A stretch of 15,507 nucleotides of DNA, taken from the IMG/VR virus record IMGVR_UViG_2778261457_000008, positions 1 to 15,507 of that record; one strand, written 5' to 3'. Position numbers and translations under genes: made by a program. Origin of the DNA: a virus. Its lineage: Duplodnaviria; Heunggongvirae; Uroviricota; Caudoviricetes. Positions within the stretch are counted from its first letter, which is position 1. Every line of letters starts with the position of its first letter. The notes under the pieces were generated by a model, which was given only the letters and a program-made list of their open reading frames with translations, made no database searches and had not been told where the DNA came from. Positions 1 through 14,376 of this stretch are shown in pieces.

Positions 1-1248
1 ATGGCACTGAATATTCCATTCAGAAATGCGTACTATCGTTTTGCATCCAGTTACTCATTTCTCTTTTTTATTTCCTGGTCGCTGTGGTGGTCGTTATACG
101 CTATTTGGCTGAAAGGACATCTAGGGTTGACAGGGACGGAATTAGGTACACTTTATTCGGTCAACCAGTTTACCAGCATTCTATTTATGATGTTCTACGG
201 CATCGTTCAGGATAAACTCGGTCTGAAGAAACCGCTCATCTGGTGTATGAGTTTCATCCTGGTCTTGACCGGACCGTTTATGATTTACGTTTATGAACCG
301 TTACTGCAAAGCAATTTTTCTGTAGGTCTAATTCTGGGGGCGCTATTTTTTGGCTTGGGGTATCTGGCGGGATGCGGTTTGCTTGATAGCTTCACCGAAA
401 AAATGGCGCGAAATTTTCATTTCGAATATGGAACAGCGCGCGCCTGGGGATCTTTTGGCTATGCTATTGGCGCGTTCTTTGCCGGCATATTTTTTAGTAT
501 CAGTCCCCATATCAACTTCTGGTTGGTCTCGCTATTTGGCGCTGTATTTATGATGATCAACATGCGTTTTAAAGATAAGGATCACCAGTGCGTAGCGGCA
601 GATGCGGGAGGGGTAAAAAAAGAGGATTTTATCGCAGTTTTCAAGGATCGAAACTTCTGGGTTTTCGTCATATTTATTGTGGGGACGTGGTCTTTCTATA
701 ACATTTTTGATCAACAACTTTTTCCTGTCTTTTATGCAGGTTTATTCGAATCACACGATGTAGGAACGCGCCTGTATGGTTATCTCAACTCATTCCAGGT
801 GGTACTCGAAGCGCTGTGCATGGCGATTATTCCTTTCTTTGTGAATCGGGTAGGGCCAAAAAATGCATTACTTATCGGAGTTGTGATTATGGCGTTGCGT
901 ATCCTTTCCTGCGCGCTGTTCGTTAACCCCTGGATTATTTCATTAGTGAAGTTGTTACATGCCATTGAGGTTCCACTTTGTGTCATATCCGTCTTCAAAT
1001 ACAGCGTGGCAAACTTTGATAAGCGCCTGTCGTCGACGATCTTTCTGATTGGTTTTCAAATTGCCAGTTCGCTTGGGATTGTGCTGCTTTCAACGCCGAC
1101 TGGGATACTCTTTGACCACGCAGGCTACCAGACAGTTTTCTTCGCAATTTCGGGTATTGTCTGCCTGATGTTGCTATTTGGCATTTTCTTCTTGAGTAAA
1201 AAACGCGAGCAAATAGTTATGGAAACGCCTGTACCTTCAGCAATATAG
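1..1248 (+). CDS. cscB: Sucrose:H+ symporter, LacY-family oligosaccharide/H+ symporter (MFS); host flank
   Basis: 415-aa ORF with about 12 hydrophobic segments; N-terminus MALNIPFRNAYYRF and the GIVQDKLGLKK loop match my recollection of CscB/LacY; csc loci are known to lie beside argW. Confidence 0.8.
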   Translation: MALNIPFRNAYYRFASSYSFLFFISWSLWWSLYAIWLKGHLGLTGTELGTLYSVNQFTSILFMMFYGIVQDKLGLKKPLIWCMSFILVLTGPFMIYVYEPLLQSNFSVGLILGALFFGLGYLAGCGLLDSFTEKMARNFHFEYGTARAWGSFGYAIGAFFAGIFFSISPHINFWLVSLFGAVFMMINMRFKDKDHQCVAADAGGVKKEDFIAVFKDRNFWVFVIFIVGTWSFYNIFDQQLFPVFYAGLFESHDVGTRLYGYLNSFQVVLEALCMAIIPFFVNRVGPKNALLIGVVIMALRILSCALFVNPWIISLVKLLHAIEVPLCVISVFKYSVANFDKRLSSTIFLIGFQIASSLGIVLLSTPTGILFDHAGYQTVFFAISGIVCLMLLFGIFFLSKKREQIVMETPVPSAI

Positions 1249-1257
1249 ACGTAAACT

Positions 1258-1301
1258 TTTTCCGGTTGTTGTCGATAGCTCTATATCCCTCAACCGGAAA
1301 A
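1258..1301. repeat. Perfect 11-bp inverted repeat TTTTCCGGTTG / CAACCGGAAAA with 22-bp spacer, 10 bp after the cscB stop
   Basis: Read directly from sequence; no T-run follows, so not a canonical intrinsic terminator. Confidence 0.5.
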
Positions 1302-1689
1302 TAATAATAGTAAAATGCTTAGCCCTGCTAATAATCGCCTAATCCAAACGCCTCATTCATGTTCTGGTACAGTCGCTCAAATGTACTTCAGATGCGCGGT
1401 TCGCTGATTTCCAGGACATTGTCGTCATTCAGTGACCTGTCCCGTGTATCACGGTCCTGCGAATTCATCAAGGAATGCATTGCGGAGTGAAGTATCGAGT
1501 CACGCCATATTTCGCTATCAGGATTCTGTGTGATGGTTACATCGCCCGGCCCAGGGCTGTTTAGTCATCAGCGCTTTCTGACAGTGCTGAGATTTCAACC
1601 TGTTGCAGTAAAAATGAGTAGATATAAGGCAAGTGTGCTGCCAAACCCATCTTTTACGGGGTGAAGGTAGATTTCGTTTGAAGGGTATC

Positions 1690-1704
1690 TGGTGTCCCCT
1701 GCAG
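1690..1704 (-). mobile_element. Attachment-site core: 15 nt equal to a tRNA 3' end (T-stem 3' half, acceptor stem, discriminator, CCA); recalled as argW
   Basis: Minus strand reads CTGCAGGGGACACCA; it lies between the host cscB flank and the first phage gene; no complete tRNA is present in the window. Confidence 0.6.
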
Positions 1705-1777
1705 ACATCTACTTGACGCGGCAGGGGATTGATTAGAATGGTGTTTTTTAGGTGTGAGAAATATTTTACCCGCTATT

Positions 1778-1978
1778 TTACCCATTGGCGCGGCTTAAGA
1801 GCTTATTTTTGAATTCACAATGGTCACGATATAACCATCTTGCTCGCCCGTGGATAACTTTGGCTTTAGGCAGGTCGCCGGACTTAATCCGGTCATAGAT
1901 GAAGGTTTTACCGAAGCCAGTATCGGCCATGATGAATTTCAAATCAACCAGTGAATCAGGCTGTAGTTCGTGTTGCAT
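1778..1978 (-). CDS. torI: Excisionase / recombination directionality factor, AlpA-Xis winged-helix family (TorI-like)
   Basis: 66-aa product MQHELQPDSLVDLKFIMADTGFGKTFIYDRIKSGDLPKAKVIHGRARW…; GGAG 9 nt upstream of this ATG; the track's upstream ATG at 1993 has no SD; position next to att without int matches KplE1-type layout. Confidence 0.7.
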   Translation of the reverse strand: MQHELQPDSLVDLKFIMADTGFGKTFIYDRIKSGDLPKAKVIHGRARWLYRDHCEFKNKLLSRANG

Positions 1979-1995
1979 GAGTGCTATCTCCAAAT

Positions 1996-2013
1996 AGGGA
2001 ATCGAACCTGCAA
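1996..2013 (-). repeat. tRNA T-arm fragment (minus strand TTGCAGGTTCGATTCC) that continues the same tRNA as the 1690-1704 core
   Basis: 16-nt match to variable loop + T-stem 5' half + T-loop; the T-stem 3' half is missing here and is found at 1700-1704. Confidence 0.5.
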
Positions 2014-2020
2014 ATCAGGC

Positions 2021-2043
2021 AATAAAAAACCGCCATCAGGCGG
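2021..2043 (-). terminator. Intrinsic terminator on minus strand (stem CCGCC/GGCGG, loop TGAT, then TTTTTTATT)
   Basis: Hairpin plus U-run read from sequence; overlaps the stop of the 55-aa gene and lies just upstream of torI. Confidence 0.5.
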
Positions 2044-2203
2044 TTTGGTGTTCTTTCAGTTCTTCAATTCGAATATTGGTTACGTCTGCATGTGCTATCT
2101 GCGCCCATATCATCCAGTGGTCATAGCAGTCATTGATGTTCTCTGCTTCGATAACTCTGTTGAATGGTTCTCCATTCCATTCACCTGTGACTCGGAAGTG
2201 CAT
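2036..2203 (-). CDS. Small hypothetical prophage protein (55 aa), missed by the ORF track (<60 aa)
   Basis: ATG at 2203 preceded by GGAG with 7-nt spacing; open frame MHFRVTGEWNGEPFNRVIEAENINDCYDHWMIWAQIAHADVTNIRIEELKEHQTA; terminator follows. Confidence 0.5.
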   Translation of the reverse strand: MHFRVTGEWNGEPFNRVIEAENINDCYDHWMIWAQIAHADVTNIRIEELKEHQTA

Positions 2204-2361
2204 TTATCATCTCCATAAAACAAAACCCGCCGTAGCGAGTTCAGATAAAAGAAATCCCCGCGAGTGCGAGGATTGTTATTGTCTTTTCTTCGTGCATTTG
2301 TCGCACTTTCGGCACCATCCAGATAGGCACATCCGTCCGCAATTAACACATATAGGCCACA

Positions 2362-2643
2362 TCATTTTTCCTCTTTTGGTTTATGAATCTGAATGGTTAT
2401 GCCGCTTTGAGTGGTGACTACAATGACAGAACCAGGCTGAAGACTGTTAAGATTGAATGCTTCGTAAAACGAATCAAAGGCCAGCGCTTTTTTATTCTTT
2501 CGGTTCCACCAACGCCATCCCTTGCTACAGGCTACACTGACAATCCACTGTCCACTCCTGTAAGCCATATAAAACCAGATGAGCAAAACCTGAAGGAAGG
2601 CTATCCAGTCAATAATCGTATATTTCGCGAAGGAGTCCATCAT
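2362..2643 (-). CDS. Hypothetical small membrane protein (93 aa)
   Basis: ATG at 2643 with AGGAGG 4 nt upstream and ATGA overlap with the upstream gene's stop; one clear hydrophobic helix (IIDWIAFLQVLLIWFYMAY); the track's longer start at 2697 would overlap the upstream gene by 58 nt. Confidence 0.5.
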   Translation of the reverse strand: MMDSFAKYTIIDWIAFLQVLLIWFYMAYRSGQWIVSVACSKGWRWWNRKNKKALAFDSFYEAFNLNSLQPGSVIVVTTQSGITIQIHKPKEEK

Positions 2644-3362
2644 TTCGCCTCCTGCGGCGGTTCTGGTAGCGGCATCCAGTGGGTTACTCCATGCCATATA
2701 CCAGTTAAGGTTTCAAACCTTGGCTCTCTGCCTTTCTGTGTCTTGGCATATTCATTCCTTGTATATACGCATTGTCTAACTGCATATCCATTCCATCCAA
2801 TAACTGTTTGTCTAATTTCAGGCATTCGCTCACTACAGCTTATCCAACCATCCGGAGTTACCGGAGAGTTGCCATCCAGCGCGTTCAACTTGTAAGCCTG
2901 GCTTACAGGTTCGGCACTATGAAGCATGGCAGCGCGGCAGGCGTTCCAGCCTTGAACCTTAGCTATTGCCACAACTGCATCGGTAAAGAACATTCTCGCG
3001 GTATCTGGCTCCGGCATTTCATCCGGCACAGCTTGCTGCGGTAACTGTGGTACAGTCAGTGACTCCAATTCAGCGATACGCTTCTCTGCGGCTTCCAGTT
3101 CATCAAGCAGCGCCAAGACGGTAGCCGGATTGGCTGCAGCGATGAATTCAGCATTGGCCTGCTGTTCCATTTGGAAATCTTCATCGAAACCGCTTTCAGG
3201 ATGCGCTCCTTCAATTATGCAAATAGGAAGATATCCAACAACTTCACGATGAATTAGCGCATCACCAGCATCAAGTTTCTCCTCTCCATATTCGAGCGAC
3301 CACACACCACACGTTGCTTTCTCTGCCTTTTCACGCAGTGCCTGATAATCAATCTTGCTCAC
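2640..3362 (-). CDS. Ead/Ea22-like early accessory protein with DUF551-like C-terminus
   Basis: 240 aa; motifs NPATVLALLDELEAAEKR and C-terminal HGVTHWMPLPEPP recalled from Ead/Ea22 and DUF551 families; GTG start with AGGAGG 6 nt upstream, GTGA overlap with upstream gene. Confidence 0.6.
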   Translation of the reverse strand: MSKIDYQALREKAEKATCGVWSLEYGEEKLDAGDALIHREVVGYLPICIIEGAHPESGFDEDFQMEQQANAEFIAAANPATVLALLDELEAAEKRIAELESLTVPQLPQQAVPDEMPEPDTARMFFTDAVVAIAKVQGWNACRAAMLHSAEPVSQAYKLNALDGNSPVTPDGWISCSERMPEIRQTVIGWNGYAVRQCVYTRNEYAKTQKGREPRFETLTGIWHGVTHWMPLPEPPQEAK

Positions 3363-3898
3363 TGGTTGCCTCCTTTGCGAAGCTGGGCGGCGAATTTCTG
3401 TGCCTCTTTCTGGATGAATAGCTTTTCGCTGAAGTTATGGTACTGACCGAACATCTCCACGCCCTGCGCCCGAACTTCAGCCATGAAGGCGTCGGTGGCT
3501 GGGTGCTCTGTCTGGCTATGCATTGCCCATTCAGATAAGTACTCGAAGCAACGGCGAAACTCCTGCCAATCACTGCACATGTTTAGATTTCCGCCTTCAC
3601 ACTCGAACTGGTAATTCTCTAAACGGTCTGCAAACGCTATGCCATTCTCGATGGCACCAAGTGGAATATCAGACTTCATCCCCGCATTCTCTGCCGTAAG
3701 CGCCGCGCACTTGGCCTCAAGGTTATCAATCGTGATTCCAGCAGAACGACACTCCCGCAACGCCGTTTCCAGTTTTGATTCAAGTTCACCGAACTTACGG
3801 ACAAGATATTCAGCGTTTGTTTCGTTAACCTTTAAATCTCGTGGGATGCATTTACCTTTCAGAAAACCATCCATCTCAATTAGTGACATTTGTTTCAT
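3359..3898 (-). CDS. Hypothetical early-left protein (about 179 aa)
   Basis: Long open frame; I place the start at ATG 3898 (GGAG upstream) rather than the track's GTG at 3916, which has no SD; no recognisable domain. Confidence 0.5.
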
Positions 3899-4055
3899 TT
3901 CTTCCCACTCCGCCACATCGCATTCAGATATTTGTTGTCATTAACAGAACCGAAACTCTTTCTCTTAAGCAATTCCTCTCTCGATGGCATTGGCTTTACG
4001 CGTTGGCGAATAATCATTTCTGCCGGAAGAATGCCGGGGTTGTATGCAAGTTCTC

Positions 4056-4346
4056 TCATGATTTACTCTCCACGACCTGGTCAATAGCCATGCTAAGTGA
4101 CATACCTAAAGTTTCGATATGCTGCTGAATATCCTGTAGCGTCTGCGCCTGAGATAACAGGATTTCACGGTTACATAACTCTTTAACCAGATGCTCAAAC
4201 TTGCTGTAATAACCGATACGGCTTAGTGTTTCTTTCCCTGCATTCTCACCTTCTTTGATAATTCCTCTTTCACTAAGAATCAGGTCGTGTTTGGTTCCGG
4301 TAATAACGTATTTGCCGAGGTCGATGTTTAGCTTCATTGTTTTCAT
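4056..4346 (-). CDS. Hypothetical protein (96 aa)
   Basis: ATG at 4346 with GAGGA 7 nt upstream, overlapping the upstream gene's stop; the track's longer N-terminal extension lacks an SD. Confidence 0.45.
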
Positions 4347-4356
4347 TGTTAATTCC

Positions 4357-4650
4357 TCAGTCATTACTGATAGCGCCATAACGTGAGCGGTAATTACGCA
4401 GGCGCGGGTCAATTTCAGGGAAGTGGGTATATGTGGCTTTGCGGAATGGTCGGATTGATGTCTGGTAAATTCGCTCGCGTTCTTCTTTCTCTGCAAGCCA
4501 TATACAGTGGCGAAATTCCTTTTCCTCTTTCGTTTCCTGCGGTAGCGACATTATCAGGTCGTAGTTTTTTCTGAATTTATCCAGCACCTCCGATACGGAA
4601 TTGCCGGAACAGCGGCGCGCGTCGTCCGCACCATACAGAGGCGCTGGCAT
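4357..4650 (-). CDS. Hypothetical protein (97 aa)
   Basis: ATG at 4650 with AGGAG 6 nt upstream; tight packing with neighbours. Confidence 0.55.
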   Translation of the reverse strand: MPAPLYGADDARRCSGNSVSEVLDKFRKNYDLIMSLPQETKEEKEFRHCIWLAEKEERERIYQTSIRPFRKATYTHFPEIDPRLRNYRSRYGAISND

Positions 4651-4663
4651 GATTTTCTCCTGA

Positions 4664-5143
4664 TTAAATTGCGTGAATAGCGTGACGAGGGAAGGGGAGA
4701 GTTACTGGTTCCTCGTCTGGGTAGATAGGTTTGTTATGTTTGTGCCACTCGACATGACATGACTTGCAGAGCCACATCACATCGGTTGGTTTGCTGTAGT
4801 CGCAGTGGTGCGCCTGTGGTTTACATTCTGATCCGCAGCACTCACATTGTGGTGGTCGGATTAGCTTACCGTCGCGCAAAAAATTACCCACAATGATGTG
4901 GGCTTTTCTTTTCCATGGGTTGCTCTGAATGAACCGCTTTTTGGCTGCGTTACACCGTTCTCTTCCGCGTTCCGATGATTGATATTCTCTCCTTGCTGAT
5001 ACTCGATGTGGCAATCCAGCGCGTTCTTTGTCGTATTCAGCCAGGCAAGCCCGGCAAGCGGCAGTTAATCCATCTCTGGATGCTCTTCTGATTTGAAAGT
5101 CCCTTTCTTCCTTCTGTTGATGGCATCTTGAGCAGATTTTCAT
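4664..5143 (-). CDS. HNH endonuclease with N-terminal Cys-rich region
   Basis: 159 aa; C-terminal motif …CECCGSECKPQAHHCDYSKPTDVMWLCKSCHVEWH typical of the HNH fold; AGGAG 6 nt upstream of the ATG. Confidence 0.65.
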   Translation of the reverse strand: MKICSRCHQQKEERDFQIRRASRDGLTAACRACLAEYDKERAGLPHRVSARREYQSSERGRERCNAAKKRFIQSNPWKRKAHIIVGNFLRDGKLIRPPQCECCGSECKPQAHHCDYSKPTDVMWLCKSCHVEWHKHNKPIYPDEEPVTLPFPRHAIHAI

Positions 5144-5152
5144 ATTCAGCTC

Positions 5153-5626
5153 CTAGAACGGAATATCCGAATCGTCGAAGTTCATAGGTGGTTCGCTGTG
5201 ATTTCCCTGCTGCTGAGGTTGCTGTCTTTGTTGCTGACCATTATTTCGCTGAGGTGAAGACTGTTCATTGCCTCCTTGCTTGCCACCAAGCATTTGCATG
5301 GTTCCACCAACGCCCACGATGACTTCGGTAGTGAACCTATCCTGTCCGCTTTGATCCTGCCATTTTCTTGTCCGTAATTTGCCTTCAAGATAAACCTCAG
5401 AGCCTTTTCGCAGATATTCGCTGGCAATTTCTGCCAGTTTCCCGCTCATTACCACACGGTGCCACTCCGTCTGCTCCTTTTGCTCTCCAGTTTGCTTATC
5501 ACGCCATTGTTCTGACGTAGCAACTGTAAGGTTTGCAAATGCCGTTCCTGATGGTGAATATCTGATTTCTGGATCATGCCCAAGGCGACCAATAATGATC
5601 ACCTTATTTACGCCTCTACTTCCCAT
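5153..5626 (-). CDS. ssb: Single-stranded DNA-binding protein
   Basis: 157 aa; OB-fold N-terminus, Gly/Gln-rich linker and acidic tail ending DDSDIPF. Confidence 0.85.
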
Positions 5627-6334
5627 TTATGCCGCCTGTTTTAGTTCGTTAACTCTGATGTTCATTACCTGAACGCATTTAGCCTGCGCCTCCTCGTTGC
5701 CAGCCATTAATTGCCAGTCACGCTGATAACGCTCGATGAGTTTTTTCTTGTCAGTTTCTGTTGACGCATAATCGCTGAAGTCTTTCAGGATTTGTTCGCA
5801 GTCAACCGATGGAGATTTCTGGTTGGTATTTTCTGGTGATGGTTTGTTATCTGATGCTGGGATTGCCCATCCCGGCAGCGATGGAGGGAGCCAGTAAAAT
5901 CCTGTTCCATCCTTCAGTTTTGCCCTGTGCCACCCCTGCTTTTTATCGAGAGATGTTTGTGCGAAACCTTCCTCAAGGTTATACAGATACCGACCGATTC
6001 CCCACTGAACGGCAGCACGCTTCATTGCACCGGAACGACCACCTTTTACGGCTTCTACCTGCGTGTTTTCAGCGGCATCCCATTTGGTTACCCATTCGGA
6101 ATCAATCTTGATTGATATGCCGCATTCAACTCCGCCGTTGTTGGGAATATCGCGGTATTCATTGCGCCATCCTGCTTTGCCGCAAACATCGTCCAGGCGT
6201 TTCATGATTGCCCGGTTCGTGACATAAGCCAGCACCATAGCCCACACCTTGCCATCGCGTGTTTTACCGCTTTGCTGTATTCGCCATTCGATATCTTCAG
6301 GGCTGAATGGCTCATCGAATTTATTCAAATCCAT
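5627..6334 (-). CDS. Rad52/Sak-like single-strand annealing protein (recombinase)
   Basis: 235 aa; pattern …GGRSGAMKRAAVQWGIGRYLY… resembles Rad52-fold annealing proteins; sits in the bet/erf slot beside ssb; GAGGTG 4 nt upstream of ATG. Confidence 0.55.
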   Translation of the reverse strand: MDLNKFDEPFSPEDIEWRIQQSGKTRDGKVWAMVLAYVTNRAIMKRLDDVCGKAGWRNEYRDIPNNGGVECGISIKIDSEWVTKWDAAENTQVEAVKGGRSGAMKRAAVQWGIGRYLYNLEEGFAQTSLDKKQGWHRAKLKDGTGFYWLPPSLPGWAIPASDNKPSPENTNQKSPSVDCEQILKDFSDYASTETDKKKLIERYQRDWQLMAGNEEAQAKCVQVMNIRVNELKQAA

Positions 6335-6342
6335 AATTCACC

Positions 6343-6531
6343 TCAGAATGGTAATTCGGATGGGGAGGAAAGAAATTCGCGCTCATTCATGCGCTCTCTT
6401 TGTGCTTGCCATAAACAAAGTTGTTTCTTTGATTTATCTCCCGCTTTACGCCAGTAACGAGCCTCAGCAATGTGATATTCTCTTTTTAATCGACTTAACT
6501 CTGGAGTTTTCGCCAGCTCTACCGGAATCAT
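6343..6531 (-). CDS. Hypothetical small basic protein (62 aa)
   Basis: ATG at 6531 with GGAGG 5 nt upstream; ATGA overlap with the kil stop. Confidence 0.45.
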   Translation of the reverse strand: MIPVELAKTPELSRLKREYHIAEARYWRKAGDKSKKQLCLWQAQRERMNEREFLSSPSELPF

Positions 6532-6641
6532 TTAGACCTCCATTTTCTGTAGGCTTCGACGGCCTCACGAAACATCTTTTCATCGCCAATAAAAGTGGCG
6601 ATAGTGAATTTAGTCTGAATAGCCATAAGTGTTTTATCCAT
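6528..6641 (-). CDS. kil: Kil-like host-killing / cell-division inhibitor (37 aa)
   Basis: MDKTLMAIQTKFTIATFIGDEKMFREAVEAYRKWRSK matches my recollection of lambda Kil; its ATG overlaps the cIII stop (ATGGATAA). Confidence 0.5.
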   Translation of the reverse strand: MDKTLMAIQTKFTIATFIGDEKMFREAVEAYRKWRSK

Positions 6642-6780
6642 TTTTTGGAACTCCTGGCTGATTAAGTACGTCGATGAGTCGTTTCCATCCGTCACGTAAT
6701 TTACGGGTGATTCGTTCAAGTAAAGATTCATTTAGTTGGAAGGCACCCATGCGAGCGCCTCCCGCGATTGCGTAAATCAT
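6634..6780 (-). CDS. cIII: CIII (FtsH/HflB inhibitor stabilising CII)
   Basis: 48-aa product MIYAIAGGARMGAFQLNESLLERITRKLRDGWKRLIDVLNQPGVPKNG; central helix matches recalled lambda CIII; AAGGAA 6 nt upstream; not in the ORF track, which instead fuses frames into 6528..6731. Confidence 0.6.
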   Translation of the reverse strand: MIYAIAGGARMGAFQLNESLLERITRKLRDGWKRLIDVLNQPGVPKNG

Positions 6781-6804
6781 GGGTGGTTCCTTATGTTGGT
6801 TTTA

Positions 6805-7773
6805 TTAGTAGGTTATTTTTGTTGCGAATACTTCGCCTTTTACGATGGCTGTTATGATATTTTTAGCAACATCTTCTGATGCGCCAACCTTGATAAGGTC
6901 AGCAAGTATTTTGTTATTTACTTCTTTTCGGTGAGCTTTATCCTTTGCTCTACACTCTTCTTCTTCCTTGATTCTTTTTTCTTCTGCTATTCTGGCTTGC
7001 TCTTTTGCTTCAGCCTCGCGCCGGATTCGTTCAGCCTCCTCCTGTGCTTTTCGGCGTTCTGCTTCAATTGCCGCATGCTTTTCTCTTTCAGCTCGTTCTG
7101 CTGCCTCTTTTGCTTCGCGCTGTGCTCGTTGCTCGGCTTCAATGCGTTCACGCTCTGCACGTTCCGCTGCGGCCTTAGCTTCTGCTTCTCGCCTTGCTGC
7201 TGCTTCAATTTCGGCTTTTGCCTTTGCTTCGGCTTCAGCTCTGGCTTTCTCTTCAGCTTCTCTTTTTAAGCGTTCTTCATGCTCTCGCTTTTCCTGCTCC
7301 GCTTTGAGTCTTGCCTCTTCTCTTTGGCGGTCAAATTCGCGATCCATCAAAATCGCTATTTCATGGTCAGACTCAATTTGCTTTGCGAGAGCTTCAGCTG
7401 CTGCCCTAGCTTCTTCTTCGGCTTTAATCCGCGCCTGTTCTTCCTCATAATCAGTAAGAGGCTGGCGTGCCTTGGCTTTCAGCTCATCAAGGCGATCACG
7501 CACTGTCTTGCGGTTGGCATCAATTAGCTTTGGAATTTCCTTCAGTTCAGCAACAAGGTCTTTGCCAAGACCATCGAGATATGTTTTCGTCTGCGCAACT
7601 TTATACGCCAGAGAAGCGATCTCCTTTCTGCCCTTTGCCGTTGTGATATCAGGCACAAAGGACATAACTTCACGTTCAACCTTTTGAAGGATTTCTTCAA
7701 TCTGGCCGGCAGACTGAAATACAGTCATTGCATTTGCTTTTTCAATAACAACTAAATCTGTTACTTCACTCAT
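6805..7773 (-). CDS. Hypothetical phage protein with long Glu/Ala/Arg/Lys-rich coiled-coil (322 aa)
   Basis: ATG at 7773 with GGAGG 4 nt upstream; the track's start at 7827 lies inside the upstream terminator hairpin; about 150 residues of EAKAEAE/RREAE repeats. Confidence 0.6.
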   Translation of the reverse strand: MSEVTDLVVIEKANAMTVFQSAGQIEEILQKVEREVMSFVPDITTAKGRKEIASLAYKVAQTKTYLDGLGKDLVAELKEIPKLIDANRKTVRDRLDELKAKARQPLTDYEEEQARIKAEEEARAAAEALAKQIESDHEIAILMDREFDRQREEARLKAEQEKREHEERLKREAEEKARAEAEAKAKAEIEAAARREAEAKAAAERAERERIEAEQRAQREAKEAAERAEREKHAAIEAERRKAQEEAERIRREAEAKEQARIAEEKRIKEEEECRAKDKAHRKEVNNKILADLIKVGASEDVAKNIITAIVKGEVFATKITY

Positions 7774-7785
7774 ATATCCTCCGTC

Positions 7786-7812
7786 AAAAAAATTGCCCTC
7801 ACACTGGAGGGC
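7786..7812 (-). terminator. tL1-like intrinsic terminator on minus strand (stem GCCCTC/GAGGGC, loop CAGTGT, then AATTTTTTT)
   Basis: Read from sequence; lies just upstream of the coiled-coil gene's SD. Confidence 0.5.
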
Positions 7813-7962
7813 AAAGAAGATTTCCAATAATCAGAACAAGTCGGCTCCTGTTTAGTTACGAGCGACATTGCTCAGTGTATTCACTCGTTGGAATGAATAT
7901 ACAGTGCAGTGTTTATTAGTATGCCTGTCTTTTAACCACATCAGGCTCGGTGGTTCTCGTGT

Positions 7963-8010
7963 ACCCCTACAGCGAGAAATCGGATAAACTCTATTCACCC
8001 CTACAGAGAG
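7963..8010. repeat. Two 14-bp direct repeats ACCCCTACAG(C/A)GAG, 34 bp apart, upstream of sieB
   Basis: 7963-7976 and 7997-8010, 13/14 identical; the second ends 16 bp before the sieB ATG. Confidence 0.4.
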
Positions 8011-8026
8011 CAAAAGAGAAACGCCG

Positions 8027-8608
8027 ATGAACAACTCATGGTGGCAGGAACTAATGCATTTTTTCCTGCAAGGAATGACACTTAAACAGTTGATTCATAT
8101 GCTAATCATCCTAATCATATTGATTATTGTTATGCCTGTAAGCGTAAAAGAATGGATAAACCTGCATAATCCAGAAATCCTTCCTCATTACTGGATGTAT
8201 TACATCCTGTTGTTTTGCGTTAGCTATGTGCTTAACGGCGTTGTTAATTCCGCTTATCACGCTGTGACTGAAAGAATTGAGATATTCGCTGCTCAGAAGC
8301 GCAAATCTAAAGAAGAGAAATACGTGCAAGATTTGTTTGATTCGTTAACTCTTGGAGAAAGAGCGTATTTGGCATTCGCTGTAGCCGCTAATAACCAGCT
8401 AAAGACAGAAAAGGGAAGCCCTGAAGCAATCTCATTGCTCGAAAAAGGGCTTCTTATTCGGGTACCTTCTGCTACTGGATATCCTGAAATCGACCGTTTT
8501 GTTATCCCGGAACGCTATAGAAATGAGTGCTACATTAGGTTTGCTGGGAAGAAAGACAGTCTTATGGATGAACTTATCGCTCAGGATAAGCATGGCAAAA
8601 ACAAGTAA
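8027..8608 (+). CDS. sieB: Superinfection exclusion protein B-like membrane protein
   Basis: 193 aa; N-terminal hydrophobic helices then a soluble domain; opposite strand from its neighbours next to N, as for sieB in lambdoid and Rac prophages; family call is from memory. Confidence 0.55.
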   Translation: MNNSWWQELMHFFLQGMTLKQLIHMLIILIILIIVMPVSVKEWINLHNPEILPHYWMYYILLFCVSYVLNGVVNSAYHAVTERIEIFAAQKRKSKEEKYVQDLFDSLTLGERAYLAFAVAANNQLKTEKGSPEAISLLEKGLLIRVPSATGYPEIDRFVIPERYRNECYIRFAGKKDSLMDELIAQDKHGKNK

Positions 8609-8624
8609 TTAGCAAATTAATTTA

Positions 8625-8897
8625 TCATCTCGCCGTCAGTTGTTTTGATTTCCGGTAGCCTGCCGCGTAAATGGCTACGTTTGGCAGGCAAATACTTCCA
8701 CTGCATTCATCTGCCTTCTTGCAGCGAAGGCTTCCGAGTGATGCTGCTTTGTCTGCTCTGACGCAACCAGAGAGCTTTAGCGCAATTTTTCGCGCCAGTC
8801 GCTGTTCTTGCATTGCCTGCTCACGTTGAGCCTGTCTGCGTGCTCTGCGGCGATTTCTGGCGTTATCGTCAGCCAGATATGTAATGACTACTGCCAT
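8625..8897 (-). CDS. N: Antitermination protein N (P22 gp24-like)
   Basis: 90 aa; N-terminal arginine-rich motif NARNRRRARRQAQRE; C-terminus …YAAGYRKSKQLTAR recalled from P22 gene 24; GGAGG 5 nt upstream; nutL and pL lie upstream. Confidence 0.7.
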   Translation of the reverse strand: MAVVITYLADDNARNRRRARRQAQREQAMQEQRLARKIALKLSGCVRADKAASLGSLRCKKADECSGSICLPNVAIYAAGYRKSKQLTAR

Positions 8898-9004
8898 GTT
8901 GACCTCCGATGATTGACTTTGGCGGTGACGCGCCGGGTGCTTATCTTCCGGTTGCCGTCGTGCAGCTGCACTTCACGTCACCCCAAAGCCAACTACTCTT
9001 TGGT

Positions 9005-9045
9005 TCCCGCATTTCGGCGGGACAATCCCATCAATGTTAAAGAGC
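9005..9045 (-). promoter_or_regulatory. nutL: boxA (GCTCTTTAA) followed by boxB hairpin (CCCGC CGAAAT GCGGG)
   Basis: Read on the minus strand between pL and N; the boxB sequence is identical to the one at nutR. Confidence 0.55.
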
Positions 9046-9091
9046 CTGCCAATCTGTTCCGTTTGGCTACCAGCGTCCTGCTGATGGCTAA

Positions 9092-9132
9092 AGAATACTG
9101 TAGGTATTTTATTGTGTAAATACCCAAGGTAT
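9092..9132 (-). promoter_or_regulatory. pL with OL operators
   Basis: Minus-strand -35 TTTACA (9115-9120) and -10 TATTCT (9092-9097) with 17-bp spacer; operators ATACTGTAGGTAT (9095-9107) and ATACCCAAGGTAT (9120-9132) overlap them. Confidence 0.55.
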
Positions 9133-9265
9133 TTATTTTTGGTGAAATAATGATAAGCAAATGAATACAAAGGATATTTATTTTTTTCGGTGTCTGCTTG
9201 TTCAGTGCTTTTTATGCGGGATATGTGAAGTGGATCCCGATAGCTATTGCTGCCGGGATTATAGG

Positions 9266-9634
9266 TTAGTCAGCGAAGGTTAAGACGAGAATTACCTTAA
9301 TGATGTCTGCTACAACAGACACGGCCATAGATAAACCAAAGACGATCCAAGCCACAGTGATGTCTTCACTACCATCGTATAGAGTTCCGTAATCACTGGT
9401 GTAAGGCGTAAATGTCGCGCCTTGATACAATAGGTATAAGCTTGATCCATAGAGGATAAATGCAGATATCCCTTGTATTGCTATGATCACAAGAATCATG
9501 AAACGAGCTGATCTATGCGCCCAAGCCTGGCTTATTTTTTCTGATAGAGATTTCGCAATAAAAGCATGCGCTAAGCCGTAAATTGTCGAGATTGCCAACA
9601 TCCCAAAAAAGCTTGCTATAGCGGTTCCAACCAT
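9266..9634 (-). CDS. Small integral membrane protein (about 122 aa, about 4 TM) directly downstream of cI, in the rex slot
   Basis: ATG at 9634 with AAGGGG 5 nt upstream, 17 nt after the cI stop; the track's start at 9655 is a TTG overlapping the cI stop; very hydrophobic; no recognisable family. Confidence 0.6.
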   Translation of the reverse strand: MVGTAIASFFGMLAISTIYGLAHAFIAKSLSEKISQAWAHRSARFMILVIIAIQGISAFILYGSSLYLLYQGATFTPYTSDYGTLYDGSEDITVAWIVFGLSMAVSVVADIIKVILVLTFAD

Positions 9635-9651
9635 AAGCGCCCCTTGCGTGA

Positions 9652-10368
9652 TCAAACCAGCCTTAGTTTTGTCTCAATTGCAACGCCTATAATCTTGCAG
9701 TTTCCATTGATTGGCACGAGAGGCCATGCAGGATTAAGTCCCTTGAGGTATTTATTTCCGCCGTCGATTATCAGCTTCTTGAATGTTGCTTCGTTAGAGT
9801 CAGAAAGTTTTGCTATGACCAAGCTGCCGTTGATCGCCTCCCTTCCGGTATCGAAAAGAACGAATGTTCCCTCTGGAATGCTTAACCCAACCGGTGCCGT
9901 CATTGAATCACCTTCCACTTTAAGCCAAAACGCATTACCTTGAATATGCGCGTCAGACTCAAGCCAAACATCTATGTCTTTAATGGTGTATGGTTCGCAT
10001 GCTTCACACCACGAGCCAGCCTGGATACTGCTTAACACCGGATACCTCTTTCCTGCTCTGTATTCCCCTGCATACCTTACGTTGGCATCGCTCTTAAGGC
10101 TTTCTGCCTGTTCTGCAACCTTGGCAGCAATTGACTGGCTAAAATCAGCAATTGAGACTTGCAACAATCGTGCAAAACCAGATGCAACCTCAACGTTTAG
10201 CGCGTTTCTGCCATTAAGATAATGCCCTACCGCTCCTTGGGTGATACCAAGTTCATCAGCGATTGAGTATTGGGTTATTCCCAATTCTTTCTTTTTTGAC
10301 TCATACAAAGCCTTAAGACGCTTAGCGTCTTCGAGCTGTTCTGTCGTCAGTGATTTTTTATTTTCCAT
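9652..10368 (-). CDS. cI: CI-type prophage repressor (HTH + S24 LexA-like autocleavage domain)
   Basis: 238 aa; N-terminus LTTEQLEDAKRLKALYESKKKELGITQ and C-terminal FWLKVEGDSMTAP…FKKL closely parallel lambda CI; divergent from cro across operators. Confidence 0.9.
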   Translation of the reverse strand: MENKKSLTTEQLEDAKRLKALYESKKKELGITQYSIADELGITQGAVGHYLNGRNALNVEVASGFARLLQVSIADFSQSIAAKVAEQAESLKSDANVRYAGEYRAGKRYPVLSSIQAGSWCEACEPYTIKDIDVWLESDAHIQGNAFWLKVEGDSMTAPVGLSIPEGTFVLFDTGREAINGSLVIAKLSDSNEATFKKLIIDGGNKYLKGLNPAWPLVPINGNCKIIGVAIETKLRLV

Positions 10369-10374
10369 AGCTTA

Positions 10375-10445
10375 ATTCTAATAGCTAAGGTACTTAAACT
10401 AAAAATACCCTAAGTATTGATTGCTTTGAATACCTGTAGTATTCT
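10375..10445. promoter_or_regulatory. OR switch: three operators with divergent pR and pRM
   Basis: Operators ATAGCTAAGGTAC (10381-10393, weak), ATACCCTAAGTAT (10405-10417), ATACCTGTAGTAT (10430-10442), centres about 25 bp apart; pR -35 TTGATT (10417-10422) and -10 TATTCT (10440-10445); minus-strand TAGAAT (10375-10380) abutting the cI ATG suggests a leaderless pRM transcript. Confidence 0.6.
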
Positions 10446-10474
10446 TTGTTCATGGTTAATAACGGAGAGTGCAT

Positions 10475-10669
10475 ATGATTCGAATGACACTTGCCGATTA
10501 CGCCAAAATCCATGGACAGGCTAAAGCAGCCAGTGACTTTGGTGTAATCCAGTGCGCTATCAGCAAGGCCATTCTGGCAGGCCGTAACATTATGGTTACG
10601 GTAAAGCCTGATGGCAGTGTGATTGGAGAGGAAGTTCGTCCTTTCCCAAGCAACAAGAAAAACAAATAG
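10475..10669 (+). CDS. cro: Cro repressor
   Basis: 64 aa from the ATG at 10475 (GGAGAG 5 nt upstream); …[40 protein letters not shown] parallels lambda Cro; the track's GTG start at 10469 is too close to the SD. Confidence 0.85.
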
Positions 10670-10675
10670 TAACAC

Positions 10676-10720
10676 CGCTCTTTAACAGTCATGGTCCTCA
10701 TTCCCGCCGAAATGCGGGAA
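10676..10720 (+). promoter_or_regulatory. nutR: boxA (CGCTCTTTAACA) and boxB hairpin (CCCGC CGAAAT GCGGG)
   Basis: Immediately after the cro stop; boxB identical to nutL. Confidence 0.6.
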
Positions 10721-10777
10721 TACAACGCGCACAAGTTGATGCGCATAACTTCTTATTAGTTAAGGAAATACTTACAT

Positions 10778-11056
10778 ATGCAACTTACAAGTACTCGCAA
10801 GAAAGCGAATGCAATTACAAGCAACATCCTGAATCGAATTGCTGTACGTGGTCAGCGAAAGGTTGCCGACGCGTTAGGGATTAATGAATCGCAAATTTCG
10901 CGATGGAAAGACAGCTTCATCCCAAAAATGGGAATGCTTCTGGCTGTTCTTGAATGGGGTGTTGAAGACGAGGAGTTGGCGGAACTGGCTAAGAAAGTAG
11001 CAAGAATGCTGACAAAAGAAAAAGCCCCGAAGAACGGCGAATTCTTCGAGGCCTGA
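10778..11056 (+). CDS. cII: CII transcriptional activator
   Basis: 92 aa; …[39 protein letters not shown] parallels lambda CII. Confidence 0.8.
11014..11052 (-). terminator. oop-like antisense intrinsic terminator overlapping the cII 3' end
   Basis: Minus strand: 11-bp stem with one mismatch (GCCTCGAAGAA / TTCTTCGGGGC), 7-nt loop, then TTTTTCTTTT. Confidence 0.5.
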
Positions 11057-11090
11057 TGTAGAAAGACTGGATCAATCCACAGGAGTAATT

Positions 11091-11237
11091 ATGACAAAAC
11101 AACTCAGTCCTTACCAGGACAAAATTCACAAACACATACTACGTGATCGCTTCCTGTCCAGCTTCAAGCAGCCTGGTCGATTCCGGGCTGAGTTGGAAAA
11201 AGTGAAGCTGATGCAGAAGGAGAAAGGTCATGAGTAA
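11091..11237 (+). CDS. Candidate small basic protein (48 aa) between cII and O
   Basis: ATG with AGGAG 5 nt upstream; no internal stops; overlaps the O start by 8 nt; not in the ORF track (<60 aa); [48 protein letters not shown]. Confidence 0.35.
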
Positions 11238-12090: not shown

Positions 12091-12093
12091 ACC

Positions 12094-12201
12094 ATGAAAT
12101 CAAAAATCAAATCGCTACTGGTCGCTGGTTATAACCACGGCTGGTTAAGTATTTCGTTTGTAGATTTCTGGTTTAAAAATCTCAATCTGAGGGAATCATG
12201 A
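12094..12201 (+). CDS. Possible 35-aa hydrophobic micro-ORF coupled to the helicase gene
   Basis: ATG 4 nt after the O stop with AGGTG 4 nt upstream; its TGA overlaps the helicase ATG (ATGA); could be chance. Confidence 0.25.
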   Translation: MKSKIKSLLVAGYNHGWLSISFVDFWFKNLNLRES

Positions 12202-14078: not shown

Positions 14079-14109
14079 ATGACCATCTACATCACTGAGC
14101 TAATAACAG

Positions 14110-14136
14110 GGGCTATTTACACAGTAGCCCTTTTTT
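14110..14136 (+). terminator. tR2-like intrinsic terminator between the replication genes and the nin region
   Basis: Stem GGGCTA/TAGCCC with 9-nt loop followed by TTTTTT. Confidence 0.6.
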
Positions 14137-14163
14137 ATTGGATTAAGAACGAGGGGGATCCTG

Positions 14164-14376
14164 ATGGACACCGTTAACGGAATGTGTTCAGACGCACCGC
14201 GTGCCAAAAAATGTAAATGCGGAAAATCACCGACAATATTCGACATGGAGAACGGGTGCCAAATCTACTGCGCTAACCACGCCGCTGTGGCGGCCGCGAA
14301 TTATCGCAGTGCGGTAACGGAGTGGAATAACCTGAAATCTGTTAGAGAGGGAAGTCATGAAAAAACTAACCTTTGA
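14164..14376 (+). CDS. Small Cys-rich (zinc-ribbon-like) nin-region protein
   Basis: 70 aa with CKCG…GCQIYC cysteine pairs; AGGGGG 6 nt upstream; its 3' end overlaps the ninB start by 20 nt; possibly Lar-like, not confirmed. Confidence 0.5.
   Translation: MDTVNGMCSDAPRAKKCKCGKSPTIFDMENGCQIYCANHAAVAAANYRSAVTEWNNLKSVREGSHEKTNL

Follow-up and report, generated by a model that had tools for sequence, protein, structure and literature searches.

Phage recombination module and the question of its third gene

In a phage recombination module, a gene for an HNH-motif protein occupies a position roughly analogous to that of exo in the lambda recombination block. The question is whether it supplies the exonuclease partner of the neighbouring annealing protein, as a first-pass annotation of the locus suggested, or serves another end. 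The DNA analysed (the window) was 15,507 nucleotides long (positions 1 to 15,507 of IMG/VR record IMGVR_UViG_2778261457_000008). Judged against related phages, the gene has the look of a mobile, selfish cassette encoding a nuclease, and not that of a substitute for the lambda exonuclease.

Layout of the locus

The locus adjoins cscB in E. coli and is the early-left Rec module of a lambdoid prophage; its type, Sf6/ES18, has been published. Its features, with the basis of each assignment, were as follows.

4357 to 4650, minus strand: Abc2 anti-RecBCD protein, 97 aa (Pfam PF11043, PHROG 656)
4664 to 5143, minus strand: zinc-ribbon HNH-motif protein, 159 aa (PHROG 2340; conserved motif residues; model)
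4664 to 4709, minus strand: 46-nt segment coding the HNH C-terminal tail (PVTLPFPRHAIHAI, then stop; identity to HNH-less ssb 3' ends)
4710 to 5171, minus strand: polymorphic HNH cassette, 462 nt (blastn breakpoints against E. coli W, HK75 and epsilon34; ssb alignment)
5150 to 5155, minus strand: overlap of the ssb stop with the HNH ribosome-binding site (direct sequence reading)
5153 to 5626, minus strand: bacterial-type SSB, 157 aa (Pfam PF00436; alignment to the HK75, epsilon34, E. coli W and ES18 alleles)
5627 to 6334, minus strand: annealing protein, Rad52/Sak-type, 235 aa (Pfam PF04098, PHROG 1097, AlphaFold2, Foldseek)
6343 to 6531, minus strand: small protein, 62 aa (PHROG 1723, labelled 'recombinase')
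6528 to 6731: kil, with the module downstream of it
8625 to 8897: N, with the module downstream of it
14357 to 14797, plus strand: NinB (lambda Orf family), early-right operon (Pfam PF05772, E = 7e-54)

The three consecutive, tightly packed minus-strand ORFs of the first-pass annotation were confirmed with their coordinates, and its description of both junctions agreed with the sequence read directly. The annealase stop TAA (5627-5629) lay directly against the ssb ATG (5624-5626; GCATAAATGGGA), and the AGGAG Shine-Dalgarno of the HNH gene (5150-5154) shared bases with the ssb stop TAG (5153-5155). The HNH ATG (5141-5143) followed 6 nt past AGGAG, the whole ssb/HNH junction being TTCTAGGAGCTGAATATG. 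A fourth closely linked gene, abc2, started 13 nt past the HNH stop (TAATCAGGAGAAAATCATG); the interval considered in the first-pass annotation (4664-6334) ends just short of abc2, which had gone unmentioned there. The annealase, SSB, predicted nuclease and anti-RecBCD genes were contiguous in the early-left operon, on the cI-distal side, as in the ES18 type. Judged by conservation, the genes are real and not chance ORFs, because the block was 98.2-98.3% identical in DNA to genes 25-28 of phage Sf6 and the annealase gene occurred in 392 complete E. coli genomes. Within the window, a tRNA scan for an attachment site found none and no integrase gene was in view; a 340-aa coiled-coil protein encoded upstream matched no Pfam family.

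Annealing protein, SSB and Abc2

The 235-aa protein matched Pfam Rad52_Rad22 (PF04098) over residues 4-136 (E = 5e-26, 91.9 bits; curated cut-off 20.3 bits). The top 16 Foldseek matches of its AlphaFold2 model (pLDDT 84) in the PDB were all Rad52-family proteins, including Mgm101 and human RAD52 (E from 9e-5 to 7e-3, probability 0.95-1.00), with modest TM-scores (0.24-0.50); structure prediction bore out the Rad52 fold previously proposed for this protein. Residues ~1-150 formed the fold, residues 162-175 were a disordered linker, and a three-helix domain (179-234) made up the C-terminus. When the PDB was searched with the annealase by sequence and by profile, nothing significant came up, the sole match being a weak, WW-domain-like one at residues 129-164 (E = 0.1-0.6). 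The annealase was 99.6% identical to the HK75 protein.

The product of the middle gene (157 aa), already taken for an SSB, matched Pfam SSB (PF00436; E = 1.7e-38) and had an unextended acidic tip, ...NFDDSDIPF, at its very C-terminus. In E. coli, partner proteins dock on the acidic tip of SSB, which needs to be free. Docking of Red-beta on the SSB tip is attributed to Zakharova et al. 2024, as cited in PMC12315714. Abc2 matched Anti-RecBCD_p2 (PF11043) over its full length (profile positions 1-97 of 97; E = 5.7e-64) and was 98% identical to HK75 Abc2; in the P22 paradigm, host RecBCD is modified by Abc2 (PMC12315714). Going by family membership, the Rad52-fold protein would anneal complementary single strands, the phage SSB would coat single-stranded DNA and pass it on, and Abc2 would reprogramme host RecBCD, with end processing as in P22. 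The resection nuclease would thus already be accounted for, and no dedicated phage exonuclease would be needed.

The HNH-motif protein

The 159-aa protein was composed of an N-terminal ribbon (C4-C7-C30-C33), a helical linker and a beta-beta-alpha element with residues C100, C103, H112, H113, D115, C126, H130 and H134. The first four of these eight were invariant in 62 relatives, and D115, C126, H130 and H134 were at least 90% conserved. In the structural model, strands 110-113 and 122-125 and helix 127-136 made up, with the conserved residues, a beta-beta-alpha-metal arrangement, and the last 12 residues were disordered (tail pLDDT < 50). The protein matched PHROG 2340 'endonuclease' (E = 2.6e-47). 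The curated HNH profiles (Pfam HNH, HNH_2-5 and Endonuclease_7) did not recognise it; Pfam scans returned nothing at E <= 0.1 and, with the limit relaxed to E <= 10, still no HNH family, and sequence and profile searches of the PDB returned nothing significant. The best Foldseek matches of the model in the PDB, which were not significant, included the zinc-ribbon HNH nickases Gme HNH (4h9d), phage T5 SciA (9qgx) and GVE2 HNH (5h0o), with which the protein would have in common a small beta-beta-alpha-metal core and a Cys4 zinc site. An HNH-type nuclease is the most probable product of the third gene. A structure-specific resolvase like T4 endonuclease VII was also considered; its sole support was that the zinc ribbon at the N-terminus (residues 1-55) weakly matched a PHROG (E = 1.6e-4), and this reading was therefore merged into that of a functional accessory, which is taken up below.

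At E <= 1e-10, 32,446 cluster representatives matched the profile of the zinc-ribbon HNH family, which Pfam does not model. PGAP left the HNH ORF uncalled in those RefSeq E. coli rows that were examined, and gene-content surveys built on those annotations therefore miss it. Phage N7 was rejected as an HNH-less relative, a gap in its annotation holding an intact 159-aa ORF that differed at V132A.

Presence, absence and insertion footprint in lambdoid modules

Among complete E. coli genomes, 392 had the annealase gene, 234 the window ssb allele and 98 the window HNH gene (98/392 = 25%), the last being a count of DNA matches covering at least 80% of the HNH query at 95-100% identity and not of intact ORFs. 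In HK75, ssb ran straight into abc2, with no nuclease gene. The cassette at 4710-5171 was missing from HNH-less modules that were otherwise 96-98% identical, and its flanks were 96-100% identical to HNH-less E. coli W. It started within the last ssb codons and carried, besides the ribosome-binding site and HNH codons 1 to ~145, its own version of ...SDIPF plus stop. The 46-nt tail that completes the HNH gene (4664-4709) was 100% identical to the ssb 3' end of HNH-less HK75, epsilon34 and the E. coli W prophage, and what it encodes was absent from HNH relatives elsewhere. The tail-to-abc2 and tail-to-DnaQ contexts were each found both with and without the cassette (a 2 x 2 pattern). An unrelated HNH_3 gene occupied the same slot in ES18, and a second HNH_3 gene lay between annealase and ssb in another locus (L011). 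In-frame decay fusions were found of two kinds, SSB::HNH and HNH::DnaQ.

The truncated and fused derivatives, the fusion of the C-terminus to foreign sequence and the omission of the ORF by PGAP in RefSeq E. coli genomes would suit a decaying or inactive remnant, or a role outside homing and recombination (host DNA damage, competitor exclusion or anti-defence). Such an explanation is improbable, however, as the window, Sf6 and N7 each had an intact ORF with every motif residue, the ORF was intact in E. coli WP7, its DNA recurred in the 98 E. coli genomes counted above by DNA match, its ribosome-binding site was strong and its family is very large.

Relatives of the HNH gene in other phages

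Gain or loss at the same place was seen in two further lineages. In Hanrivervirus (34 records covering at least 80% of the query), the gene was present in morffagbaw and absent in vojen, and also absent in pSf-1 as judged by a two-piece match; flank identity was ~94%, and alignment with vojen placed the start of the insertion right behind the IPF codon. In Mydovirus, NDO71 had the gene and KpS11 did not (flanks 97.9% and 95.7% identical), and the polymorphic segment started right after IPF. Presence and absence with matching, precise boundaries, as expected of a homing gene, were thus found in the lambdoid, Hanrivervirus and Mydovirus groups, starting at or within the ...IPF codons of ssb. In Murrayvirus, the match was unbroken across the gene in the 10 records covering at least 80% of the query, and the gene therefore appears fixed there.

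An ORF with an acidic ...IPF tip stopped ~4-190 nt upstream of the HNH relative in 64 of the 80 IMG/VR loci encoding one (controls: 2/80, 0/75, 3/69 and 3/80). Identity was at most 53% for 48 of these 64 relatives, and the order was kept down to 31% identity. ORF87 of Staphylococcus phage K, also a relative, sits inside a DNA polymerase gene split into three pieces. Placement in or next to one conserved target gene, with some members in introns, is a feature of homing genes, and the 64 loci and ORF87 display it. The HNH gene followed ssb whether the annealase of the module was Rad52-type, Erf-type or Erf-like; an identical HNH gene, together with its upstream 153-aa gene (SSB-type ...DIPF tip), stood behind an Erf-family annealase in one locus (L014) and behind a Rad52-family annealase in another (L015). 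Across the loci compared, the HNH gene tracks ssb and not the annealase.

Conserved adjacency to ssb would also be expected if the HNH protein and SSB act together, the HNH protein being a genuine recombination or replication accessory, either a nicking or a structure-specific endonuclease, that makes ends or nicks or processes branched intermediates. The tight packing with translational-coupling-like signals, the ssb-to-HNH order in distant viral loci, the persistence of this order with annealases of differing type and the conservation of the catalytic residues are consistent with such a role. For the ES18 HNH gene, which is tightly packed, Zheng et al. 2025 judged legitimate membership of the Rec module 'very likely', while cautioning about HNH mobility (PMC12315714). 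Against this, modules that are nearly identical do without the gene (HK75, E. coli W, vojen and KpS11), it accompanied the annealase gene in just a quarter of the E. coli genomes that have it, and its insertion alters or lengthens the SSB C-terminus instead of sparing SSB. The decayed fusion copies, the relative within the split polymerase gene of phage K and the unrelated homing-type HNH_3 gene in the same slot also speak against it, and an accessory role is considered unlikely, though it retains appreciable weight.

According to the first-pass annotation, the HNH protein would be a non-orthologous equivalent of lambda Exo/RecE, resecting double-stranded ends to 3' single-stranded DNA for the Rad52-like protein. 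Apart from gene position, this proposal has in its favour that no PD-(D/E)XK exonuclease is encoded in the early-left operon of the window, but it is very improbable. HNH/His-Me enzymes are known as endonucleases or nickases and not as processive 5'-3' exonucleases. The presence of abc2 means that RecBCD can serve as in P22, the HNH gene was missing from HK75-type modules, and HNH relatives occurred beside exonucleases (YqaJ in Medea1, RecE-like in morffagbaw, DnaQ-like in K75 and E. coli WP7). A SynExo partner would be a PD-(D/E)XK 5'-3' exonuclease that co-varies with the annealase and that the annealase requires, whereas the window protein has an HNH-like fold and motif, is absent in HK75 and has Erf or Rad52 neighbours, its linkage being to ssb and not to annealase type. 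The recombination module, the Rad52 fold, the SSB, the probable HNH nuclease and the packing thus survive from the first-pass reading, and the replacement of exo, against which the signs of a mobile cassette also count, does not. The comparative data point to homing-endonuclease-like behaviour, which that annotation had named as the contrary case.

Proposed homing at the ssb 3' end

The preferred reading (probability about 0.55) sees in the HNH gene a free-standing endonuclease cassette of the homing type, promoter-less and aimed at the 3' end of ssb. It is preferred because of the optional presence of the gene, the insertion footprint, the gain and loss at one site in three phage lineages, the place of the family behind SSB-tip ORFs, the phage K relative, the HNH_3 genes, the decayed fusions, the T4 precedent and the conserved catalytic motif. 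The cassette would have entered ssb at its extreme end, with the ...IPF codon on one side and a 15-codon tail of older date on the other, and would use the transcription of the operon together with its own ribosome-binding site. In resident prophages or co-infecting phages with an HNH-less ssb, the enzyme would nick or cut the ssb 3' end; repair would draw on the HNH-bearing copy, possibly through the neighbouring annealase/SSB module, and would copy in the cassette with flanking ssb codons. Cycles of invasion and decay would leave 15-residue SSB extensions as scars.

Several observations weigh against a homing cassette. A gene next to ssb trivially gives an indel boundary near the ssb stop, and a functional nuclease partner of SSB would likewise show a conserved ssb-to-HNH order in distant phages. 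The opinion of Zheng et al. 2025 (PMC12315714) favours legitimate module membership, and the gene is seemingly fixed in Murrayvirus. Base composition gave no signal of foreign origin, the HNH gene (GC 0.483, GC3 0.456) not differing from its neighbours (0.477-0.503 and 0.42-0.53).

The closest parallel considered was T4 segG. Situated between genes 32 and 59, it encodes a free-standing endonuclease directed at gene 32, the T4 SSB gene; free-standing endonuclease genes of T-even phages are promoter-less cassettes within host operons (PMC2988022). Like segG, the window gene would be a promoter-less nuclease cassette in an existing operon, and it adjoins the phage SSB gene and varies among close relatives. 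SegG, however, is a GIY-YIG enzyme and the window protein has a zinc-ribbon HNH motif; the window insertion is at the ssb stop codon and able to lengthen SSB; and cleavage and homing have been demonstrated for segG, whereas homing of the window HNH gene is deduced from sequence comparison. A non-exhaustive literature search found no report of an ssb-targeted HNH homing endonuclease.

More tentatively, and with somewhat less than even confidence, the zinc-ribbon HNH family may be a homing endonuclease lineage specialised on phage ssb 3' ends (...DDDIPF codons) that leaves tail scars and remodels the SSB tip. Invasion could replace the ssb stop and so give rise to a conserved 15-residue tail, roughly A-P-[VI]-G-L-Q-[YF]-G-[KR]-x-x-[IL]-H-[AV]-[IL], which would overlap the nuclease start codon in a different frame; loss of the nuclease would leave the tail as an SSB scar in unrelated phages (lambdoid, rV5-like and Vibrio). 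Through such replacement of stops and addition of tails, a selfish element would repeatedly remodel the SSB C-terminal tip. The window site appears to have been invaded twice, the old tail now being joined to the end of a newer HNH cassette.

With gain and loss of the HNH gene, the end of the phage SSB changes between a free ...IPF tip and a 15-residue extension. As annealases and many host proteins dock on the SSB tip, a mobile element that rewrites it could, if the reading is true, alter phage-host protein traffic. If confirmed, the locus would offer a clean new system for homing of free-standing endonucleases, and the large unmodelled HNH-motif family behind ORFs with SSB-type tips could matter more than the module itself. 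For recombineering, the useful parts of the block are the annealase, SSB and Abc2, and the HNH protein should not be assumed to be an exonuclease partner.

Comparison with known recombination modules

The module is already known and as such ordinary. The Sf6 Rec module was reportedly described by Casjens et al. 2004, and is said to have been in GenBank since the Sf6 genome of that year. Gene order in Sf6 (annealing protein, SSB, HNH, Abc2) was identical, with no material difference from the window. In the 2025 classification of Zheng et al., the ES18 functional type combines anti-RecBCD, SSB, nuclease and annealing protein (25 panel phages), and the HK75 type is without the nuclease (27 phages; PMC12315714). 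The function content of the window matched the ES18 type; in ES18 itself the slot holds the unrelated HNH_3 (PF13392). Lopes et al. 2010 mentioned neither Sf6 nor ES18, the lone occurrence of 'endonuclease' there being a figure-legend abbreviation, and in Neamah et al. 2017 HNH appeared solely for packaging.

The lambda Red (exo-bet-gam) and RecET systems resemble the window in being annealase-based phage blocks, in an early-left operon, with a RecBCD-directed protein. They differ in that the window has no PD-(D/E)XK exonuclease, has Abc2 instead of Gam and an extra SSB, and has an HNH gene that does not act as an obligate annealase partner. With P22 (arf-erf-abc1-abc2), the window shares the early-left position, an annealing protein plus Abc2 acting on host RecBCD and the lack of a phage 5'-3' exonuclease (PMC12315714; general knowledge), but its annealase is of the Rad52/Sak type (PF04098) and that of P22 is Erf (PF04404), and SSB and HNH genes stand where P22 has abc1. 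A further likeness to P22 is the small upstream gene at the arf position, whose 62-aa product resembles that of Sf6 gene 29 (annotated HK97 gp42-like) and whose stop lies 8 nt ahead of the annealase ATG. NinB, in the early-right operon, is an additional recombination function encoded by the same prophage.

Prophage Setting and Gene Layout

The window comes from an E. coli chromosome and holds the early region of a lambdoid prophage. On its right side cscB is followed by an excisionase-like gene, by ea-type genes and, beyond these, by a leftward operon; the immunity and early-right genes encode Kil, N, a SieB-like protein, cI, Cro, CII, O, a primase-helicase and NinB. Neither an integrase gene nor a tRNA was found at 1249-1993, a segment that includes the excisionase/TorI-like gene; in a related genome a DUF4942 fragment alone separates this gene from cscB. 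The main features were as follows.

1-1248: cscB, sucrose/oligosaccharide MFS permease, complete gene
1778-1993: excisionase/TorI-like gene
4357-4650, minus strand: abc2, 97-aa ORF
4664-5143, minus strand: HNH gene, 159 aa
5153-5626, minus strand: ssb, 157 aa
5627-6334, minus strand: annealase gene, 235 aa
6805-7827: alanine/glutamate-rich coiled-coil protein gene, upstream of kil
8027-8608, plus strand: SieB-like gene
14764-15507: ORF overlapping the end of ninB, with a PAPS-reductase-like domain (E=1.3e-8), continuing beyond the window end

The coiled-coil protein, named 'TolA' in some genome annotations, matched no Pfam family. It was 45% identical to the product of the gene directly after a tailed ssb in Vibrio phage BT-1011 (locus L027, 1385-2347), hinting at a recurrent association with tailed-ssb/Rec modules.

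The annealase, ssb and HNH ORFs of the first-pass annotation are all present in the leftward operon, just as it gave them. The annealase stop TAA directly adjoins the ssb ATG (GCATAAATGGGA), and the ssb stop TAG lies inside an AGGAG ribosome-binding site, with the next ATG 6 nt on (TTCTAGGAGCTGAATATG). The interval proposed for the module (4664-6334) was one gene too short: it omitted abc2, which starts 13 nt past the HNH stop (TAATCAGGAGAAAATCATG) and whose product is a full-length match to the anti-RecBCD protein Abc2 of P22 (Pfam PF11043, E=5.7e-64).

Predicted Proteins of the Module

The 235-aa protein is a Rad52-like annealing protein (Pfam Rad52_Rad22, E=5e-26). Structure prediction, the check suggested in the first-pass annotation, bore this out: the AlphaFold2 model, built from 60 homologues, had the Rad52 fold (mean pLDDT 84), and its best 16 solved-structure matches were all of the Rad52 family (yeast Mgm101, human RAD52; E 9e-5 to 7e-3). 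The model places a disordered linker at 162-175, followed by a three-helix C-terminal domain (179-234) that, by analogy with Red-beta, could be a partner-binding domain. Residues 129-164 (window 5843-5950; GWHRAKLKDGTGFYWLPPSLPGWAIPA) gave weak WW-domain-like matches (PRP40, E=0.1-0.6); three short strands are predicted nearby (126-128, 136-139 and 145-149), and W148, P151, W156 and P159 were invariant among the 60 homologues. A 33-nt stretch of the gene (about 6155-6187) was 100% identical to a 'CRISPR'-annotated feature of E. coli JNE151685 (NZ_AP027258.1), so a host spacer appears to target the annealase gene. The ssb product (157 aa) belongs to the bacterial-type SSBs (E=1.7e-38) and ends in an unextended acidic tip, ...NFDDSDIPF.

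The identification of the 159-aa protein as an HNH nuclease is supported by its motif, by a match to PHROG 2340 'endonuclease' (E=2.6e-47) and by its model, and is less secure than that of the other two: no Pfam model matched, and sequence searches of the PDB gave nothing. Across 62 aligned relatives C100, C103, H112 and H113 were invariant, and C4, C7, C30, C33, D115, C126, H130 and H134 were conserved in at least 90%; the confident model (pLDDT 92) has a strand-strand-helix element at 110-136. The protein was therefore treated as a putative zinc-ribbon HNH-motif nuclease of a large family that lacks a Pfam model and comprises 32,446 cluster representatives at E<=1e-10. NCBI's PGAP left the intact ORF without annotation in the 25 rows listed, out of 102 RefSeq E. 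coli records containing it. In E. coli WP7-S17-ESBL-01 (locus L108, 6433-6929) the identical protein is encoded in the 497-nt 'gap' that separates ssb from the 3'-5' exonuclease gene.

A Known Module with an Optional HNH Gene

The recombination module put forward in the first-pass annotation has been described before. The region shares 98.2-98.3% identity with genes 25-28 of Shigella phage Sf6, and phage N7 has the same gene order, its HNH ORF being present and just unannotated. A survey of 325 lambdoid phages by Zheng, Casjens, Davidson, Amundsen and Smith (2025; PMC12315714) defined an 'ES18' functional type (anti-RecBCD, SSB, nuclease and strand-annealing protein; 25 phages) and an 'HK75' type, the same set minus the nuclease (27 phages). 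Those authors noted that HNH gene mobility 'suggests caution' and yet judged that the HNH gene of ES18, which is tightly packed, very likely belongs legitimately to the Rec module (PMC12315714). Membership of the HNH gene in the recombination system, as put forward in the first-pass annotation, has thus been published before as a hypothesis.

The annealase fold was confirmed, whereas the distinctive proposal that the HNH protein replaces lambda Exo was not supported: abc2 is present, the HNH gene is optional, its relatives occur beside exonucleases, and it follows ssb. P22 is not known to encode a 5'-3' exonuclease of its own. Abc2, the partner of the P22 annealase, binds RecC and alters RecBCD behaviour (PMC12315714). 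In HK75, with an annealase 99.6% and an Abc2 98% identical to those of the window, ssb continues directly into abc2 with no HNH gene. Among 5,426 complete E. coli genomes the annealase gene occurred in 392, the window ssb allele in 234 and the window HNH gene in 98. HNH relatives elsewhere lie in modules with a canonical exonuclease of their own, as in Pseudomonas phage Medea1 (ERF-YqaJ-ssb-HNH), Escherichia phage morffagbaw (ExoVIII-Erf-ssb-HNH) and Vibrio phage K75 (DnaQ-Erf-ssb-HNH). Two contigs have an identical HNH gene and the same 153-aa gene upstream of it (SSB-type ...DIPF tip), but the annealase before this pair is of the Erf family in one and of the Rad52 family in the other; the HNH gene thus tracks ssb, not the annealase.

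The ssb-abc2 slot is a mosaic hot spot.

States of the slot between ssb and abc2
Empty: HK75
HNH of the window: window, Sf6, N7
47%-identical allele of the window HNH: database protein P0022
Unrelated HNH_3 gene: ES18
DnaQ-like 3'-5' exonuclease: epsilon34, E. coli W
HNH of the window plus DnaQ-like gene: E. coli WP7, at the same chromosomal site as the window

In the module of one E. coli prophage (L011; GCA_019436465.1, 1852-4278), an HNH_3 gene (PF13392) lies between annealase and ssb, and a zinc-ribbon HNH gene between ssb and abc2. E. coli assemblies also contain in-frame fusions of an SSB N-terminus to an HNH C-terminus (proteins P0011 and P0014, the latter joined at shared IVG codons) and of an HNH N-terminus to a DnaQ-like C-terminus (P0053, P0063). 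These fusions appear to be decay products of the slot, and such in-frame chimeric ORFs point to repeated deletions within it. Protein P0024 was also grouped among the chimeric ORFs.

Insertion Footprint in the Window

The E. coli W prophage has the same ssb allele (97.9% identity) and no HNH gene; relative to it, the segment specific to the window spans 4710-5171. Its upstream edge lies within the final eight ssb codons: HNH-bearing alleles end in M-NFDD(S/E)DIPF and a stop, and HNH-less alleles in M-DFDDDIPF plus fifteen further codons (APVTLPFPRHAIHAI) and a stop. The downstream edge lies just 5' of these fifteen tail codons, which the window reads as the HNH C-terminus. The 46-nt tail segment is 100% identical among the window, HK75, epsilon34 and E. 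coli W; as part of the HNH protein it is modelled as disordered (pLDDT <50), and HNH relatives elsewhere lack it, aligning to residues 1-137 only. The tail-to-abc2 context, the tail-to-DnaQ context and both ssb body alleles each occur with and without the cassette, which consequently behaves as a unit of its own, placed between ...IPF and the tail.

The Same Site in Unrelated Phages and a Proposed Role of the HNH Gene

In 80 IMG/VR loci encoding HNH relatives (31-100% identity), an ORF with an acidic ...IPF end stopped about 4-190 nt upstream of the HNH gene in 64, and in 48 of the 64 loci at <=53% HNH identity.

Loci with a tip ORF in control regions
Same region, reverse strand: 2/80
Downstream tile: 0/75
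Far-upstream tile: 3/69
Shuffled sequence: 3/80

In T1-like Hanrivervirus, morffagbaw carries a 37%-identical HNH relative, absent from vojen and, judged from two-piece matches, from pSf-1 and others; the flanks of HNH-less relatives were about 94% identical, with at least 80% query coverage in 34 records. The insertion in morffagbaw relative to vojen (about 446 nt) starts directly after the IPF codon and replaces the ssb stop, so that the SSB acquires a tail (ASVGLQYGKHRIYAL) overlapping the nuclease start. In Klebsiella Mydovirus, NDO71 has an HNH relative and an SSB ending in DWDEEIPF, and KpS11 has no HNH relative and ends in DFDDDIPF plus APIGLPYGRNFIHCI. Flank identities between the two are 97.9% and 95.7%; here too the polymorphic segment starts directly after IPF, and KpS11 retains short remnants of the nuclease ends. 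The relative in Staphylococcus phage K (ORF87) lies inside a three-piece split DNA polymerase gene, a classic home of homing endonucleases.

The best-supported reading assigns working recombination to annealase, SSB and Abc2 and sees in the HNH gene a free-standing cassette of homing type without a promoter of its own; the homing-type reading is given a probability of about 0.55. The gene would be expressed from the early-left transcript via its own ribosome-binding site, and the targets of its product, for cutting or nicking, would be the ssb 3' ends of HNH-less relatives that co-infect the cell or of HNH-less resident prophages. The HNH-bearing copy would then serve as the template for repair, by recombination that the neighbouring genes can supply, and the cassette would be copied in together with altered ssb tip codons. 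The altered tips of HNH-bearing alleles (e.g., DWDEEIPF against DFDDDIPF) resemble a cleavage-immune allele; this is only suggestive, since the Hanrivervirus pair shows no tip-codon change. A precedent is T4 segG, a free-standing endonuclease gene adjoining gene 32, the T4 SSB gene, with its target within gene 32 (PMC2988022). Free-standing endonuclease genes of this kind sit within operons of their host as cassettes that lack a promoter (PMC2988022), and tight packing is therefore no evidence of partnership. The conserved ssb-to-HNH order would also be expected from functional coupling, and a genuine SSB-associated accessory nuclease is a serious rival, if a less likely one, to the homing-type cassette.

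Tails on Phage SSBs

The 15 residues past IPF have the consensus A-P-[VI]-G-L-Q-[YF]-G-[KR]-x-x-[IL]-H-[AV]-[IL] and occur in Acinetobacter, Klebsiella, Vibrio and rV5-like phages; a tip-plus-tail query reached at least 80% coverage in 146 phage records. Many unrelated phage SSBs have such an extension (APVGLQYGK..IHAI-like) past ...DDDIPF, as seen at loci L003 (epsilon34), L004 (HK75), L008, L016 (E. coli W) and L023 to L027. In rV5, ABPH49 and morffagbaw the zinc-ribbon nuclease gene starts inside the tail codons in another frame. The tail may be read as the translated 5' end of the cassette, left as a scar after nuclease loss; alternatively, it may be a selected feature of those SSBs. The literature searches made, including a targeted one, turned up no earlier report of these scars or of the family-wide placement of the HNH genes after an SSB-type tip ORF.

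In Vibrio phage D96a (locus L017, 1890-1925) ssb ends in ...DFDDDRS and a stop, and the following 15 nt are GACATCCCGTTCTAA (D-I-P-F-stop), a pattern that would fit a small insertion having pushed the tip out of place. A degenerate GATTCCGTTC repeat lies directly past the ssb stop of K75 (locus L019, after 1944).
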